This document shows positions 57,501 to 64,000 of a DNA stretch of 64,000 bases, piece by piece; the stretch's first letter is position 1; the number at the start of each line of letters is the position of its first letter. A program made the position numbers and the translations under genes. Source of the DNA: an uncultured Chloroflexia bacterium (GTDB lineage: Bacteria > Chloroflexota > Anaerolineae > CG2-30-64-16); the NCBI GenBank assembly GCA_963810095.1, contig CAWEMM010000007.1, positions 512,001 to 576,000 on the forward strand. The letters run 5' to 3'. The notes under the pieces were generated by a model that was not told where the DNA came from, ran no database searches, and saw only the letters and a list, made by a program, of their open reading frames with translations.

Positions 57501-60500
57501 CGACGGCACGACCGGGAAGGCGAGGCTGACCGGGCCCGACACGCAGTGGCCCTTCACGACCACGTGGAGCTACCGCTGGCAGCCGCAGGCGGGCCCTCCT
57601 GACGGCGCTCAATTCGAGACGACCGCAAATGCCGTCGTCCACCGGGGTCCGCGGATTCCGGCGGTCGAGACGTTCCTGACGGTCGACGTGCTGCCGCCGG
57701 CGGAGGTCGAGGTGGCGCTGACCGCGAACGGTGCGCCGGTCGAGCCCGGCGCGGTCTTGCGCACAGCCTCGCCGCAACTGCGGCTGGCCTGGGACGCGAG
57801 CCGCGACGGCAGCGGCGTGGCAGGCTACACGACCCGCTGGGTGACCACGTCGGCGCTGAGCCGCACGGTGGAGACCCGGGCGGCCGGCGCCGGCGGTCCT
57901 TACGAGGATCGCTATCAAGCCGGCGACGCGCAGACTGTTGCCGTCGAGTTGATCAGTCGTGACCTGCTCGGCAACGAGCGCTCGCAACCCTTCGGCGCAG
58001 TCGTCGTCGACGGGCCGCTGACGCCCGACCTGGTTCAGCTGCCGGCCGATCCCGGCGTCCCCCCTGATCCCGAGTGGATGGAGACCGGCTGCACGCTGCT
58101 CACGACCGACGGACGGGCCGCACGCATCAGTGGCGCAGGCGCATACCCGATCCAGGCCCTGTACGGAAGCTGGGACCAGGCGGCGCTGCGCCTGACGTGG
58201 GCGGGCGCGGACTGGAGTTCGGACGGCGATCTGTTCGTCTATCTCGACACGGGCGCGGGCGGCACCCGCGACCTGTTCACCCCATACCCGGTGCCCGAGA
58301 AGGCGAGCCAGTTCCTGCTGCCTTCGAGCCTGGACGCCGATACGCTGGTGTGGGTGCAGGACAACTTGAAGGCCAGCCTGCTCAAGTGGCAAGGGGGCGG
58401 GTGGCAGCCCGCCGGTGAGCTGACCGCGTCGCAATACCGCTTCGACCCGGTGAGCCGCGACGGCGAGACGGACCTATACCTGCCGTTCAAGCTGTTGGGC
58501 GCCCGCGCGGGTGATCCCATTCGTGTCCTTGCTCTTGCCGCCGAAGAACCCGTCTCGGGCGCCGGGCTGCAAATCTGGGCGACCGCGCCGCACACCAACC
58601 CTGCAAACAGCGCGCGCTCGAACCAGCGGGCCGCGCTCGGCTGCGCTGCTGGCAAGTCGGGGCGTGACGATCCCGTTGCTGCACTACTATGATTGGGCGG
58701 CCACGGGCGACGGGGTCTGCCCGAACGGCACGAACGCCGAGCGAAATACCAACGTCCAGCTCGAAAACTCGGTGTCCTCCGACCCAGTCGGCGCTGCCGT
58801 GTCCGGGCTCGATCTCCCGCTGCTCTGGGACGCGGCCGGCGCGGCGGCCGGCGGTCTGACGGCCGCATCCGGCGCCGCAGGACTGGACCTCGGCCCCGAC
58901 AGCTTCGTGATGGACTTTCTCAACCCCGAGCACCCGCCCCTGGCGAATGGCAGCACGGTGGTCTACACCGTGCGGGTGGCCAACAAGGGCACCAGTGCGC
59001 TCGAAGGCGCCTGGCTGGCGCTGAGCGGCCTCGGGGCCGTACGTCTCCTCGAGGAGCGAGTGGAACTGGGTAATATCCCCGCAGGCGAAGAACGCACGGT
59101 AACCTTCAGCGGCGTGACAGACCTGAGCCTGTCCGAACGGCCTGTGGCCGCGGCCCTTGCGCAACTCTACGCGGCCGGCTACCGGCCCGAGAACCCCGCC
59201 CTTGACTGGTTCCTCGTGGCACACCGCGTCGACAGCGGTGCCCCCGAGAGCTTTGGGCTCGACCTGGGAGCGCGTATCGTCGGCGCCGACTTCGGCCAAC
59301 TGAGCGGCTATGCGTTCGACGAGTCGAGCGTAGCGGCCGTGAAGATGGAAATACGGTCGCCCCAGGATGAACTCTGGTCGGTCACCTGCCCATTGCGCCG
59401 CCAGGAGGCCGGTCGTTGGACCTGCCAGTGGGACGCGACGGGGACGCCGCAGGGCGCGCCTCTGCCCGACGGCGAGGAACTCACCGTGCGCTTCCAGGTC
59501 AAGGATCGCCTGGGCCAGGTGAGCGGGTGGGGCCAGGCCCACACGGTCCGGGTGGACGCCCGGGCGCCCAAGCTCACACTGCCCGATCAACCGGCGACCG
59601 TACAGGCGGGCCGGCTCCGCCTCTCGGGGGCGGTGGAGGATGCCGCGGGCGTGGCGCGGGTGTGGGTGTGTGTGGACGGGAAGTGCCGGGACGTGGACCT
59701 CGTGGGTGGGCTCAAGAGCCGTACACATTGGTCCTTCAGCCCGGGCATCGGGGCTTCCGACTACCTGACGCACACGGTGACGCTGCAGGCGGAGGACGCC
59801 CTCGGAAATCGGACGGCCGAGCCGCAGACGTTCCAGATCGTCCTCGACAACGTCCGGCCGCGGGTCACCGTCGACCAGGCCGGCGCGCAGCTTGTGCTCG
59901 GTGCGACGGAGACCGTGCTCACGGGAACATCGACCGATGGCAGCCCGTTCGTCCGGACGTGGGTGCGAGTGCAGGAGCCGGACGGGAACATCGTCTTACG
60001 CAGCGTGTCGCAGGAGGGCGGACCACTGGAAGTTCGACCTCGCGGGCGAGCGCCCGGGTCGCTACGTGCTGTCGGTCGTAACGAAAGATGCGGTCGGCAA
60101 CATGACGCGGACCGGCGAGTACGCGGTCGACGTGAGGTGTACGGATGCGGCGTTCGGCGTCGGCAAGATCACGGTGACCGCCGTGGAAGGCATGACCCTT
60201 ACGCAGACGATTGCCGCGACTCTGACGAACAGCGGACCCGACCCGCTGCCCGCGGGCATTCCCGTCGGCTTCTACGACGCGAATGGCCGGCTCGCCGGGC
60301 TGGGCACGAGCATGGCGCTGGCCGCGGGCGGCCAAGAGACGCTATCGGTCACGCCGTGGACGGTGCCGGCTGCCGGCCGTTATGAGTTGATCGTGGTGCC
60401 GGCCGACCCGGACCTCGGCACGCCCGTGCCGGTCGCCTTCTGTACCACCCCGGGCGCGGAGCGGGCGCTCGTCTGGGCCGGCCCGCTGCCCGAGATGCTG

Positions 60501-60614
60501 CCGGTGTACGTGCCGCTGATCCTGTTCGGCGCCGCGGGGCCAGGTCCCACCGAAGAGCCCGAAAGCAAAGGCGAGGAGAGCGCGCCGGGGGACCGCGACA
60601 ACACGATCCAGTAG
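45571..60614 (+). CDS. Giant (~5,010 aa after correction) surface protein: N-terminal lipoprotein-carrier-like region, TM hairpin, DxDxDG Ca-binding repeats, hydrophobic helical region, 6 LamG-like domains, Ig-like domains; frameshifts near 58640 and 60021 plus a compensated pair at about 46792-46886
   Basis: ORFs 45571..58692, 58511..60385 and 59892..60614 join by single-base shifts; repeated WxHV...LYxDG...FxGxIDD(V/L) LamG motifs; DTDGDGLTD repeats; VYVPLILF near the end. Confidence 0.88.
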
Positions 60615-60657
60615 TGCGTGGGGCGGGTGATGACCCGCCCCTGAGGTGAACGCGTAA

Positions 60658-60689
60658 GCACGGGGCAGTCACCTGGACTGCCCCGTGCC
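60658..60689. terminator. Hairpin between convergent genes
   Basis: gcacggggcagtc...gactgccccgtgc, 13-bp stem. Confidence 0.6.
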
Positions 60690-60727
60690 CATCATCGCAA
60701 CGTGAGGTGAGGGAGCCTCTGCCGCCG

Positions 60728-61942
60728 CTATGCGGGGCTGACCGCGTCCTTCCCCGCCAGGCGCATCGCCACCCCGTACAGGACGAGCAGCAGTACGATC
60801 AGAAGCACGAGGAACGGGGGGATGACCTCGAGCGAGGTCCGCCGCGCCAGGAGGCCGGCGAGCGACGGGATAATGGCCGTGCTCAGCCCCGCCGCGGCAA
60901 TTTGCATGCCGATGGTGTTAGCCGCATAGCGCGCGCCAACTCGCGCGGCCGTGCCCGACACCAGGGCCGGGAAGATCGGTGCAATGGCAAAGCCGGCGAT
61001 CACCACGGCCAGCAGGCTGGCGACCGCCACCGGGTTCCACCAAAGCAGCGCCGCACCCGTGAGTGCAGCAAGCAGGCTCCCGCGGATCAGTGCGTTCAGC
61101 CCCACCCGCTTGGTCCACACCCCGGCCACGATGCGCCCAATGGTGAACATCGCCCAGTAGCTGCCAGCCCACAGACCCGCCATTTCCGGCGCAATCCCGC
61201 GGGACTCGGTCAGCAGCGTGTAGCTCCAAAGGCCGAGCGTGACTTCCATGCCCGTGTAGAGGAAGAACAGCAGCAGGCTGATCCACACTGCCGGCCGGCG
61301 CAAGGTCTCCGCGAAGGACGTTTTGTAGTCGGTGAGGCGAGCGGGTTCGCCGGCCGTCCGAGCTGCCCCGCCATCCTCCCACATCTTGAGCGTGAAGGCG
61401 AATGCGGACGCCAGCAAGATCTGCGCAGTCCCGACCAACGCGTAGCCGGCCCGCCAGGTGTGCGCGTACTTCAGGCCCAGCGTCATGATGATCGGCCCAA
61501 GCATGACGCCGATGCCGTAGCTGGCGTGCAGCCACTGCATCAGCCCCTCACTGAAGTGCGCGGCCACATAAGTGTTGAGACCCGCGTCGATTGCGCCGGC
61601 CCCCAGCCCGGAGAGCACCGCCAGCCCGACCATCCAGCCCCACGCGGGCGCCAGCGCATAGCCAATGAGCGCGGAGCCGGTTGCCGCGCAGCTCAGGGCC
61701 AGCACCCGGCCCACTCCGAGCCAGCGGATCAGGCGGCCACTGGAGAAGCTGGAGGTGAGGTAGCCGGCCGTCCCGGCAACGAGCATGATCCCCAGTGAGT
61801 CGAGCGGCCGGAAGAATGATGCCCGGATGGAGGGCCAGGCCACGCCCAGCAGGCCGTCGGGCAGGCCGAGCGAGATGAACGCGATGTACGCCAGGACGAT
61901 CAGTGCAAGGCGCGGGCGGTTGCGGATGAGAGCGGCGTGCAT
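60728..61942 (-). CDS. MFS transporter
   Basis: AFISLGLPDGLLGVAWPSI, GLGAGAIDAGLN, WLHASYGIG, APIFP. Confidence 0.92.
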   Translation of the reverse strand: MHAALIRNRPRLALIVLAYIAFISLGLPDGLLGVAWPSIRASFFRPLDSLGIMLVAGTAGYLTSSFSSGRLIRWLGVGRVLALSCAATGSALIGYALAPAWGWMVGLAVLSGLGAGAIDAGLNTYVAAHFSEGLMQWLHASYGIGVMLGPIIMTLGLKYAHTWRAGYALVGTAQILLASAFAFTLKMWEDGGAARTAGEPARLTDYKTSFAETLRRPAVWISLLLFFLYTGMEVTLGLWSYTLLTESRGIAPEMAGLWAGSYWAMFTIGRIVAGVWTKRVGLNALIRGSLLAALTGAALLWWNPVAVASLLAVVIAGFAIAPIFPALVSGTAARVGARYAANTIGMQIAAAGLSTAIIPSLAGLLARRTSLEVIPPFLVLLIVLLLVLYGVAMRLAGKDAVSPA

Positions 61943-61943
61943 G

Positions 61944-62420
61944 CTACTCGTCCCCCCCGCCTTGCGGCGCGCTGCCGGCCGGTTCGATACCGCGCGGTTC
62001 GATACCGCCGCGCACCGAGAAGCGCTCGTAGACGTCAGGGCCAACGCGGATCAGGCGCCGGGTCTGCATGTCGATCGGGCACCAGAGCGAGCGGGCGCGG
62101 GCCAGCACCCTCTGGTCGCTCACCCGCACGATCTCGACGAAGCGCTCGAAGATGTGGCGCTCGGCCCCGCCCACCCAAGTACGGCCGACGACCTCGTCGC
62201 CAAGGCGCGCCGAGTCCAGGTACTCGATCTCATGGCGCTTGACGAGCCAGCCGATCTTCGCCTTTTGCGCCTCGGTGGCGCGGGCAAACCACGCGGCCGT
62301 CGAGATCTCCTGGACCCAGCGCACGTAGACGACGTTGTTGACGTGCTGAAAAAAGTCGATATCTTCCGGATGGATGGGAATCGGTTGCTCGAAGCGCTCC
62401 GCTTCAGGTTCGGCTGGCAT
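61944..62420 (-). CDS. Acyl-CoA thioesterase (4HBT/FcbC-like hotdog fold)
   Basis: DIDFFQHVNNVVYVRW, HEIEYL; a 15-bp tandem duplication near the 3' end encodes GIEPRGIEP. Confidence 0.92.
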   Translation of the reverse strand: MPAEPEAERFEQPIPIHPEDIDFFQHVNNVVYVRWVQEISTAAWFARATEAQKAKIGWLVKRHEIEYLDSARLGDEVVGRTWVGGAERHIFERFVEIVRVSDQRVLARARSLWCPIDMQTRRLIRVGPDVYERFSVRGGIEPRGIEPAGSAPQGGGDE

Positions 62421-62543
62421 GACTCGGCTTTCCTCAAAATGATGGCGCGCCCGAGGGCGCGCTGCAGCCGCGATTATCGCACCATCTCTCGGACGCGTCA
62501 ACGAATACGGGGTGCGCTCGCCTAGATTCCGTCAAAAGGGGTA

Positions 62544-62572
62544 TTGACACGGCGGCGCAGCGGCGCGATAGT
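62544..62572 (+). promoter_or_regulatory. Sigma70-type promoter of the putative ncRNA
   Basis: TTGACA-N17-GATAGT; the predicted start site near 62579 coincides with the 5' strand of the first helix. Confidence 0.65.
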
Positions 62573-62578
62573 GGAGTC

Positions 62579-62916
62579 GCCACTGGAGGAATGTCCGCAC
62601 ACTTTGGACGAGGGTCCACAGGTACCGAAAGGTCAGTGCGAGAGTTCCATCAGAGAAAGGAGGCAAAACGCAACTGAAAGGCAAGCAAAGTTTAGGTTGT
62701 CCAACAGTGGCGAGAGAGCCCCGAGAATCTGAACGGCATGTTCCGGCTTGGCACTTCCTGTAATCTGGAAGCTCGCAGGCAGCCCGATAGGTCAGAAGTG
62801 TTAGCGGGGCTGCCAGGGTGCGATAAAGACGCAAGCACGCGGAAGGAACCAGAACGGGTGCTTGGGGCCTCTCAGTAACTCAAAGCCGCCGGTCGAGCCC
62901 GACCGGCGGCTTTTTT
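62579..62916 (+). ncRNA. Putative ~335-nt structured non-coding RNA, unclassified
   Basis: No credible ORF; purine-rich loops; two closed multi-helix domains (62577-62713 and 62714-62873); GAAA tetraloops; own promoter and terminator. Confidence 0.7.
62882..62916 (+). terminator. Intrinsic terminator
   Basis: aaagccgccggtcg-agcc-cgaccggcggc followed by T6. Confidence 0.9.
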
Positions 62917-63126
62917 GTGCCCCGGCGCCCCCATCTCTCACCCCGCACCCGCCCCCACCCCCTGCGCAATCTGTGCCAAATTCCTCCGCGCGAAACTCTG
63001 TGAACAGGAGTATAATCGCGCGCGGCGGACTAGCCGATGGGCGACAGCACTCGTAAGTGAGTGCTGGGCCGGCTTAGCGCTCTGTCTCTGAGAGCGGGCC
63101 GGCGCACGCGAAAGGAGACTGTAGAA

Positions 63127-63561
63127 ATGAGACGCGTTCGGCTCTTCCTCGTCGTCGCCATTGCCATCTCCATCTTTCTGCTTGCGGTGCCTGCGTATGC
63201 GACCCCGGCACAAACAGCCGGGGGCTCGGGGTGTGCCCAATTCTATACGGTCCAGTGCGGCGACACGCTGTACAAGATCGCAGTCCGCTTCGGCACCAAC
63301 ACTTGGGCGCTGGCGCGGCTCAATGGGATCAGCAATCCTAACGTGATCTATGCGGGGCAGACGATCTGTGTCAAGGCGGCTGCACCTATCCCGCCTCCGC
63401 CGTCTCAGGGCGGCTTCTGGTACACGGTGAAGTGCGGCGACATGCTGCGCGTCATCGCAGCCCACTACGGCTGGGGCACCTGGTATCTCGCGGGGGTGAA
63501 CGGCATCGCGAACCCGGATGTGATCTATGTGGGGCAGCGGCTGTGGATACCCTACCATTGA
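63127..63561 (+). CDS. Secreted protein with two LysM domains
   Basis: Signal peptide; YTVQCGDTLYKIA and YTVKCGDMLRVIA; SD AAGGAG; TATAAT at 63011-63016. Confidence 0.93.
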   Translation: MRRVRLFLVVAIAISIFLLAVPAYATPAQTAGGSGCAQFYTVQCGDTLYKIAVRFGTNTWALARLNGISNPNVIYAGQTICVKAAAPIPPPPSQGGFWYTVKCGDMLRVIAAHYGWGTWYLAGVNGIANPDVIYVGQRLWIPYH

Positions 63562-63682
63562 GTTTGACATAAGTGGGATCTCGACCGGGCTCTCGGCGCG
63601 ACGCGGGAGCCCGGTCTTCATTTTGGTACCGTTAACAGAATCGAGGGCATCGACGTCGATGCCCTCGGCCTATTCACTTCCT

Positions 63683-64000
63683 CTACTGTGCCAGGTCAGG
63701 GGCCGGACGACTCGTCGGCCTCGTGATTGGCTTGCTCACATCCACCCGGTTGGGCGGGTCGAACAGCACCTTGACCCCCTCGAGCGGTCCCGCCATGTCC
63801 CACCGTTGGGCTAGTTCCCAGCTGATATCGGCCACCCAGCCGCGCTTCCGCAGGTTCTCACGGTGCTTGGCCTCGGCGCAGTCCACCACCATCAGTGGTC
63901 CGATGATCTCGCCGTCAGGGTGCTGCAGCCACACCTTCTTTCCGATGTACTTCGGCTCGAGCAGAGCCACAGCGTCCACGCACTCCGGGCATTCCGGAAC
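63683..64000 (-). CDS. Hypothetical protein, possibly RlpA-like double-psi beta-barrel; 5' end outside window
   Basis: VALL...IGKKVWL...GPLMVVDC...VADISWELA pattern; frame appears open to the window edge. Confidence 0.55.
   Translation of the reverse strand, partial: VPECPECVDAVALLEPKYIGKKVWLQHPDGEIIGPLMVVDCAEAKHRENLRKRGWVADISWELAQRWDMAGPLEGVKVLFDPPNRVDVSKPITRPTSRPAPDLAQ

Follow-up and report, generated by a model that had tools for sequence, protein, structure and literature searches.

The 64,000-nucleotide stretch of DNA analysed here (the window) comes from contig CAWEMM010000007.1 (positions 512,001 to 576,000, forward strand) of assembly GCA_963810095.1, belonging to an uncultured Chloroflexia bacterium of the GTDB lineage Anaerolineae; CG2-30-64-16. 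Close to its 3' end, as promoter, terminator and fold together show, it encodes an independently transcribed, stable and structured small RNA (sRNA) of about 300 nucleotides (nt) before the terminator hairpin, or about 335 nt when the hairpin is included. The RNA class is new in the sense that no described family, either in Rfam 15 or in the literature texts searched, matches it; no new mechanism is demonstrated.

Few bacterial RNAs in the size range of some hundreds of nucleotides are both conserved and structured, and RNase P RNA, signal recognition particle (SRP) RNA, 6S RNA and transfer-messenger RNA (tmRNA), joined later by OLE and raiA, each opened up a piece of basic biology. The family described here bears the marks of such an RNA: it is found in 36 of 37 genomes, usually in single copy, with a near-consensus promoter, strong covariation, an invariant core and presence in environmental RNA libraries. 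The host order, common in sediments and sludge, has been little studied and is largely uncultured. The usual place of the gene, beside a probable replication origin with DnaA-boxes and DnaA-trios, is unusual for an RNA gene and offers a testable link between a structured RNA and the initiation of replication.

Promoter, terminator and coding potential

The original prediction, made from the letters of the window, was of a stand-alone RNA gene lying between a promoter TTGACA-N17-GATAGT and a strong terminator at 62882-62916, with no credible open reading frame (ORF) between them. All three elements were borne out. The promoter is present and achieves 10/12 in a promoter scan, which finds three promoter-like sites in 62000-64000 compared with a mean of 0.5 for shuffled sequences. 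It looks built for high expression, and transcription would begin near 62577-62580. Read directly from the sequence, the terminator is AAAGCCGCCGGUCG-AGCC-CGACCGGCGGCUUUUUU, which is folded as a G+C-rich hairpin of 14 base pairs (bp) and followed by six T's ending at 62916. The same region draws terminator-type sub-threshold Rfam matches, and a simple terminator scan reports a part of it (62895-62912). The only ORFs from promoter to terminator are of 46-100 residues and either start 5' of the transcription start or sit within helices. None is kept among the homologues, in whose alignments the differences are indels and paired changes.

Conserved structure

The RNA strand of 62570-62916 has a minimum free energy of -145.3 kcal/mol (z -4.45 against dinucleotide shuffles, with 0/100 shuffles as stable). 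Its features are collected in Table 1. The two-domain layout put forward originally is upheld, but the domains prove unequal: domain B alone forms the conserved core, while domain A is short or missing in many relatives.

Covariation was counted for 31 modelled pairs in 41 aligned rows, one of them a spurious antisense row (L017:1511-1689) that was taken out for the tree and for the counts of conserved letters given below. Across these rows 95.0% of cells are paired and 19 of the 31 pairs show double changes; not one of 500 column shuffles matches the real alignment on any of five measures. When the partners are slid by one to three columns, pairing falls to 33-55% and the covariation score drops from 0.229 to 0.017-0.064. 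Fitting the 41 rows to the model biases the alignment towards the structure. RNAalifold applied to an earlier alignment agrees independently, giving 26 pairs of which 12 are compensatory. Among the homologues, compensatory base changes are seen in helices P1, P2, P2b, P3 and P4. Homologues with covariation had been proposed as a check on the RNA, and the covariance models and shuffles deliver both: homologues are order-wide and covariation is strong.

Every helix listed in the original prediction can be found in the sequence at the expected place. Compensatory changes back both closing helices, gcttg/caagc and the inner pairs of cttcc/ggaag, while ttccg/cggaa and ggcagccc/gggctgcc come from the fold only. 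A loop-loop pair proposed to link the two domains, acactt/aagtgt, did not hold up: it is present in the window and was not found, by eye in the alignment, in the two full-length paralogues of the related genome G001.

The core is a long irregular rod, its domain being 170-200 nt in length across the family. From the base upwards it consists of P2 (about 13 bp with a bulge), an A.G mismatch, P2b (AAUCG/CGGUU), an internal loop, P2c, a short helix and P3, the purine-rich internal loop occurring in the variants AAC/AGA or AGAC/AGAC. At the apex of the rod is a three-way junction carrying P4 (CCNG-loop-CNGG) and a variable arm, P5, with an A-rich return strand; P4 has a GNRA loop in 23 of the 39 rows used. 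In the same 39 rows, conservation reaches 92% or more at about 33 positions. The near-invariant blocks are CCCCGAG (62719-25) and GGTTGCTTGGGG (62856-67, with one change in the window), and in the family as a whole the near-invariant letters CCCCGAG ... GGUUGCUUGGGG are both strands of P2/P2b. The longest conserved stretches are thus double-stranded with non-canonical pairs. No conserved single-stranded stretch of at least 7 nt, such as might act as a seed, was seen in the alignments by eye, without counting, and no pseudoknot was found, without a systematic search. The window has all the helices that define the family, namely P1, the P2/P2b rod, P3 and the P4/P5 junction, together with the terminator.

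Helix P1 has the consensus GCCAnnnG with CnnnUGGY and pairs the 5' end with the strand immediately 5' of P2; its positions 4-7 vary with pairing retained (34 rows, own script). Since P1 joins the 5' end to the strand adjoining P2, it would stack end-on to P2 and enclose domain A. Between the last base of the -10 element and the first of domain B, 11 rows have 32-49 nt and the other 23 have 126-144 nt, the window being one of the long forms. Judged from these alignments, domain A is an expandable, lineage-variable insert closed by a covarying helix. In the window it contains a ggaat/gttcc helix, a gtcc/ggac hairpin and GAAA-capped arms. These internal helices are common to the two G001 paralogues only, in a three-sequence fold, and three sequences are too few to test them.

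Table 1. Coordinates of the RNA gene and its parts in the window, of RNA library contigs aligned to it, and of known structured RNAs encoded elsewhere in the same genome (G000).
Feature	Position	Strand	Remarks
Sigma-70-type promoter	62544..62572	+	-35 TTGACA 62544-49, 17-nt spacer, -10 GATAGT 62567-72
Helix P1 and variable domain A	62577..62713	+	P1 62577-85 with 62705-13; domain A 62586-62704
Domain B, conserved core	62714..62873	+	Also taken as 62704-62873 (3' domain); covariance models and covariation
Closing helix P2	62714-25 with 62861-73	+	Base of domain B; A.G mismatch above
P2b	62727-31 with 62855-59	+	Above the A.G mismatch; then purine-rich internal loop, P2c
ttccg/cggaa	62741-45 with 62840-44	+	Sequence and single-sequence fold alone; outside the counted pairs
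P3, gcttg/caagc	62746-50 with 62832-36	+	Compensatory changes in relatives
cttcc/ggaag	62754-58 with 62767-71	+	Inner CC/GG pairs backed by compensatory changes
Hairpin P4	62754-71	+	On three-way junction of domain B
Variable arm P5	62773-62823	+	On three-way junction of domain B
ggcagccc/gggctgcc	62778-85 with 62807-14	+	Sequence and single-sequence fold alone; outside the counted pairs
A-rich joiner	62824-31	+	Returns P5 side of junction to P3
3' tail and intrinsic terminator	62874..62916	+	8-nt agtaactc; hairpin 62882-62913; U run to 62916
RNA library contig, run X7	62589-62823
RNA library contig, run X10	62597-62863
RNA library contig, run X13	62616-62869
RNA library contig, run X15	62596-62830
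RNase P RNA	Contig 8:34093-34605		64 bits, full model span
6S RNA	Contig 11:25113-25310		85.4 bits, canonical
Large SRP RNA	Contig 7:118355-118618		175 bits
tmRNA	Contig 13:160209-160620		175.1 bits

Presence in RNA libraries

For the region 61500-64000, 22 public runs are listed, among them nine RNA libraries with a small share of its words. Four RNA libraries from four different studies were aligned, and each yielded a single contig, 235-267 nt long and with 99% identity or more to the window, that falls wholly inside the RNA (62589-62869; Table 1). No contig from these four runs falls on the thioesterase or LysM genes; neither this lack of cover nor the word shares in the other 18 runs are used as evidence. 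Contigs from relatives also cover the conserved core, one at a depth of 71.6. One relative's contig stops at 62875 and then runs into adapter-like letters, a single weak hint of a 3' end after P2.

Distribution of the family

The genome holding the window (G000) comprises 6.13 Mb in 16 contigs and is 88.5% complete. Plain BLAST gave matches in 5 of 60 other related genomes, mostly to a 33-nt core: the whole RNA was matched in G001 only (two copies, 69-75% identical), and a core of 33-57 nt in four more genomes. The window and six BLAST relatives share a layout of TTGACA/TATAGT promoter, 5' GCCAC... strand, variable stretch, GUGGCGAG-AGAGCCCCGAGAAAUCGAACGG, middle, GACGGUUGCUUGGGGCCUCU and terminator. 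As plain BLAST found so few relatives, covariance models were needed. The first, R1, represents the 3' domain and was built partly from the window itself, so that the window's score of 150.1 bits is not independent; R2, in which the window is one of 37 rows, scores it at 110.5 bits, and R3, built without the window, at 86.4 bits.

With R1, matches are obtained in the 36 genomes mentioned above, out of 37 in the window's taxonomic family, and in 16 of the 16 high-quality genomes; the sole miss is a genome that is 63% complete. The family consists of the same 37 genomes as its order, and R2 gives an identical result. Most genomes have one copy, with two in G000 (the window and contig 6:1373468-1373659), four in G001 and two in G012. 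Among the copies in G012 is a fragment of 49 nt (contig 6:252216-252264). One of the copies in G001, an 80-nt mini-copy (contig 25; L049:17485-17564), keeps only the P2/P2b rod, in which CCUC/GAGG is a compensatory change, and a short cap.

Beyond the order, 150 other genomes of the class were sampled, and weaker, real-looking relatives are seen in six genomes from four families. They have TTGACA-17-TAnnnT immediately upstream and show compensation in the closing helix, for example GCUCC/GGAGC for GCCCC/GGGGC; some are without any 5' domain. R3 gained only one further genome. In 141 of 151 sampled genomes of the class nothing was found at the model sensitivities used, which is not to be read as absence. 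An R2 match in G174 was dropped as false, since it lies in apparent coding sequence and has no promoter. Finally, a word-pattern scan of public contigs produced 96 stretches. Among the 80 listed, 16 were confirmed by R1, 15 of them from genomes already known, and the remaining stretches are chance matches, as the information content of the pattern predicts. A contig assigned to Candidatus Poribacteria, OZ251998.1, has nine pattern matches (L060, L062, L075, L091, L113, L116, L122, L128 and L131), all with a span of 144 nt. None fits R1, and they suggest a dispersed repeat containing both words.

Comparison with known RNA classes

Rfam 15 (4227 families) gives no match at the gathering threshold in the whole window, nor in seven loci of the typical kind defined below. 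At E ≤ 10, the region 62400-63150 has seven weak matches, four on the terminator hairpin and three trivial. The original prediction that the RNA falls in no recognised class, for which an Rfam scan was the suggested check, therefore stands: there is no full-length Rfam 15 match. It had also set aside tmRNA, SRP RNA, 6S RNA and RNase P RNA, correctly in each case, as none of the four fits here and all are encoded elsewhere in G000 (Table 1). RNase P RNA models (RF00010/RF00011) score no more than 10.3 bits (cut-off 100), and that on the terminator hairpin; 6S RNA (RF00013) has no match at E ≤ 10, and the consensus apex is a three-way junction; SRP RNA (RF00169/RF01854) has no match here; and ARAGORN, bearing on tmRNA (RF00023), finds neither tRNA nor tmRNA in 60000-64000. 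The raiA motif RNA (RF03072) likewise has no Rfam match. For Y RNA/YrlA, there is no TROVE match in G000 at its 88.5% completeness, and the two ends of the RNA do not pair together, each pairing instead with the internal strand 62705-62725. For a sponge of the CsrB/RsmZ type, there is no CsrA match in G000, and GGA-rich stretches occur only in long forms of domain A, being absent by eye from the short forms. The RNase P RNA of G000 (L001) is itself unusual at 513 nt: it scores 64 bits against the Rfam cut-off of 100 with model positions 1-367 covered, and has apparent large insertions.

A survey from 2017 reportedly covers 224 motifs. Text searches of the literature, which did not take in supplementary motif lists, brought up no account of an RNA of this kind. 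In the main texts of two genome-wide surveys of non-coding RNA, PMC11109978 and PMC8632094, no word starts with Chloroflex, Anaerolinea or Caldilinea.

Two known RNAs are instructive in their likeness. The SRP S-domain (RF01854) has a long helix, purine-rich internal loops and a junction with a GNRA-capped hairpin, a layout that serves protein binding. The RNA family of the window resembles this layout, but no helix-8 motifs are seen in it, it has no SRP match, and the SRP RNA is found elsewhere in G000. The closest analogue in kind is raiA, likewise an abundant bacterial RNA that stands alone: it is about 200 nt long, has many helices with covariation and one variable sub-domain (a small hairpin or multi-stem), and is inherited stably within clades. 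According to PMC10861870, raiA folds into six to eight helices (P1-P8) with two pseudoknots and has 51 conserved positions; no biochemical function is known for it, and raiA genes are few, if present at all, in the Anaerolineae. The RNA described here, by contrast, is a rod with one three-way junction, and matches raiA in neither sequence nor structure.

Typical copies and the window paralogue

By sequence comparison, the window copy is a diverged extra copy (a paralogue), the typical copy of this genome being that on contig 6. The promoter TTGACA-17-TAnnnT precedes 32 of 34 members, the others comprising one row with a 16-nt and one with an 18-nt spacer. Typical copies have a TATACT -10 element and a YRUUUAA tail between P2 and the terminator, as well as a CCTTAAWATT box that lies about 13 nt 5' of the -35 element in most genera and about 40 nt 5' of it in the window's own genus. 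The box stands in the UP-element position of a near-consensus promoter. Both the upstream box and the YRUUUAA tail are missing from the window and the G001 contig-25 copies, which score 110, 112 and 101 bits with R2, compared with 120-165 bits for most typical copies and 76-91 for four of them. In a tree of domain B (180 columns, no support values) the window and the G001 paralogues form one clade within the order and do not group with the typical copies found in their genus; the tree is too weak to choose between an old duplication and transfer.

In G000 the CTTAATATT box is found 5' of TTGAC only at the typical RNA copy and at one weaker site, TTTAATATT, on contig 12, and it is thereby ruled out as a general promoter element of the genome. 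A stricter version of the pattern has no match anywhere in G000.

The neighbours of the copies differ. The window RNA is flanked by a divergent thioesterase gene and the gene for a LysM protein, and the G001 paralogues by genes for a GNAT acetyltransferase, a multihaem cytochrome and an amidohydrolase, while the typical copies are convergent with a DUF4015 glycosyl-hydrolase gene. In three other families the gene that converges with the RNA encodes a phosphoribosyltransferase of about 195 residues. At these loci (L152, L153 and L154, of families f15, f49 and f35) the phosphoribosyltransferase gene follows an ORF of about 135 codons, and at L153 a tRNA gene lies just 5' of the RNA promoter.

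Proposed function

We consider that the family may be a stable protein-binding RNA, serving as a scaffold or for sequestering, that works through its invariant irregular helix. Our confidence in this is evenly balanced, counting in the part that concerns the identity of the RNA, which is well supported. A protein-binding rod is suggested because conservation sits in an imperfect helix, no long seed was seen, and the mini-copy keeps only the rod; a promoter seemingly made for high expression and a gene that is nearly always in single copy fit the same picture. The RNA would act in trans as the RNA part of a ribonucleoprotein. Its recognition site would be the invariant imperfect helix at the base of domain B, CCCCGAG-A-AAUCG over CGGUU-G-CUUGGGG, with its G.U pairs, the A.G mismatch and the adjacent tandem-purine internal loop. 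The three-way junction, with its mostly GNRA-capped hairpin, would fix the shape, and domain A would be a tolerated expansion.

Several points weigh against this proposal. The RNA has no known or predicted protein partner, and a conserved gene for an RNA-binding protein was not found in its neighbourhood. The best-known partners of bacterial sRNAs are missing, in that CsrA, Ro/TROVE and Hfq were not found in G000, a genome 88.5% complete. Conserved helices can equally signal a tertiary or catalytic core. The window copy, which lacks the box and the UUUAA tail and, its G001 paralogues aside, has the lowest R2 score of any full-length copy in family f1 (110 bits), could be a decaying copy. The library contigs give no strand, ends or level, and DNA contamination is possible in such libraries. 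Lastly, the statement that the RNA has not been described rests on Rfam 15 and text searches, supplementary motif lists lying outside them.

Replication-origin context

The typical copies have a characteristic sequence on their 5' side: TTAYCCACA-TATCCCCAGNCC-CTACTACTAC, then an AT-rich stretch and then the RNA promoter. Box, spacer, CTACTAC, AT-rich stretch and RNA promoter are found in this order at 22 of 36 loci. We take TTATCCACA to be the DnaA-box consensus; the CTA repeats are the complement of the DnaA-trio 3'-GAT-5'. In PMC8287927 the origin unwinding module is made up of a DnaA-box and the DnaA-trio (3'-GAT-5'), and the box-to-trio spacing of 10-13 bp seen at our loci agrees with it. 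Within 800 nt upstream, 24 of 31 typical loci have between one and six DnaA boxes (TTATCCACA, at most one mismatch) and 20 have at least two, compared with a chance expectation of about 0.17 boxes per locus by our own arithmetic.

Strand asymmetry points the same way. On contig 6 of G000 (1.92 Mb) the cumulative GC skew is V-shaped with its minimum at 1.38 Mb and a local sign change at 1.376-1.378 Mb, and the typical RNA, at 1,373,468-1,373,659, is near this minimum. In twenty 20-kb samples round the RNA of G002 (483 kb) the AT skew turns from positive to negative exactly at the RNA, and the GC skew is mostly negative before it (8 of 10 samples) and mostly positive after it (7 of 10). From DnaA boxes, trios and skew we therefore infer that the main copy usually flanks oriC and is transcribed away from it. 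The probable chromosomal origin of G000 is at contig 6:1373700-1374250 (L047:2700-3250), and similar regions lie upstream of the RNA in L017-L048; the parts are DnaA boxes, a box-spacer-CTACTACTAC trio-like module and an AT-rich stretch directly 5' of the typical RNA.

Origin-flanking promoters include those of gidA and mioC in Escherichia coli and the Ps promoter of hemE in Caulobacter, and drive protein genes. The likeness of the present arrangement to these, and to the module of PMC8287927, is that a strong promoter abuts the unwinding region and reads away from it, with the order box, spacer, trios and AT-rich stretch; the difference is that the product is a conserved structured RNA, kept also away from any origin.

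These findings raise the question of whether the RNA is linked to the origin in function. The ancestral gene could have been part of the oriC region, with the order DnaA boxes, TAG trios, AT-rich stretch, UP-like box, consensus promoter and RNA, and the RNA or its transcription might tune initiation; the window copy would then be a dispersed paralogue supplying the RNA in trans, an extra source of the regulator independent of the origin. We regard this as rather unlikely, if the best placed of the alternatives to a protein-binding scaffold. A similarly modest chance is given to its more specific form, in which the folded RNA would itself be a trans regulator of initiation: its invariant helix might, for instance, bind DnaA or some other initiation factor, and transcription at the origin would thereby be coupled to firing. 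The excess of boxes, the fit of the module and the skews of G000 and G002 speak for a link. Against it, no DnaA box cluster is present near 7 of the 31 typical loci, near either set of paralogues or near any of the five distant-family loci, and yet the structure is kept there; the RNA thus needs no oriC in cis. The upstream CCTTAAWATT box also stays with the RNA in the seven typical loci without DnaA boxes, so that it belongs to the promoter, where it has the position of an UP element, and not to the origin. Adjacency may instead reflect inherited synteny, or the placement of a highly expressed gene at high dosage. Moreover, dnaA in G000 is 378 kb from the RNA and has its own, second cluster of five DnaA boxes beside it at 1.751 Mb.

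Other explanations

Some bacteria carry two 6S RNAs, and the family could in principle represent a further RNA of the polymerase-binding kind to which 6S and Ms1 belong, one specific to this lineage. Its core is about the length of 6S RNA, is a long irregular rod-like helix, has a strong promoter and occurs in nearly every genome of the order. The resemblance fails, however, at the apex, which is a three-way junction and not a large central bubble with a terminal hairpin, and the absence of any RF00013 match, even at the permissive cut-off, together with a canonical 6S RNA elsewhere in G000 (85.4 bits) makes the idea improbable.

We are no more inclined to a trans-acting sRNA that base-pairs with mRNA targets, even though several features would suit one: the gene stands alone between its own promoter and terminator, and the RNA has A/G-rich joiners and a UUUAA tail that is both conserved and unpaired. 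The conserved letters are mostly within helices, with no long conserved single-stranded seed seen; Hfq was not found in G000; a search of the rest of the genome for exact core words of 10-12 nt brings up only scattered sites that look unrelated; and seed sRNAs are typically smaller than this RNA, which measures 190-330 nt and folds into several helices.

Less probable again is a ribozyme or a trans-acting RNA that senses a ligand. A complex fold with a three-way junction, frequent GNRA loops and some 33 highly conserved positions is what either might have, but there is no likeness to the ribozymes or riboswitches of Rfam, and conservation is concentrated in one helix and not in junctions or pockets, the lack of a pseudoknot being subject to the limit given above.

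A terminator-based cis-regulatory leader of the LysM gene (63127-63561; LysM 107.8 bits), which lies on the same strand with the terminator in between, is scarcely credible: the terminator is about 210 nt before the start codon, no LysM gene stands beside the other copies examined, and the RNA is not a cis-leader, as the original prediction had also argued, because the genes beside paralogues and orthologues are unrelated or, as in most loci, convergent (DUF4015, Pribosyltran), and form no coherent set of the kind expected downstream of a riboswitch.

Sequence downstream of the gene

Between the terminator and the LysM start, 62917-63126 contains a C-rich tract (62920-62966) and then a perfect TATAAT (63011-63016) that has no good -35 element and is not listed by the promoter scan; the interval has no Rfam match. 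The TATAAT is followed by a G+C-rich 5' leader, about 100 nt long and containing inverted repeats. An ORF of 98 codons (63683-63979, minus strand) converges on the LysM gene and has no Pfam match.

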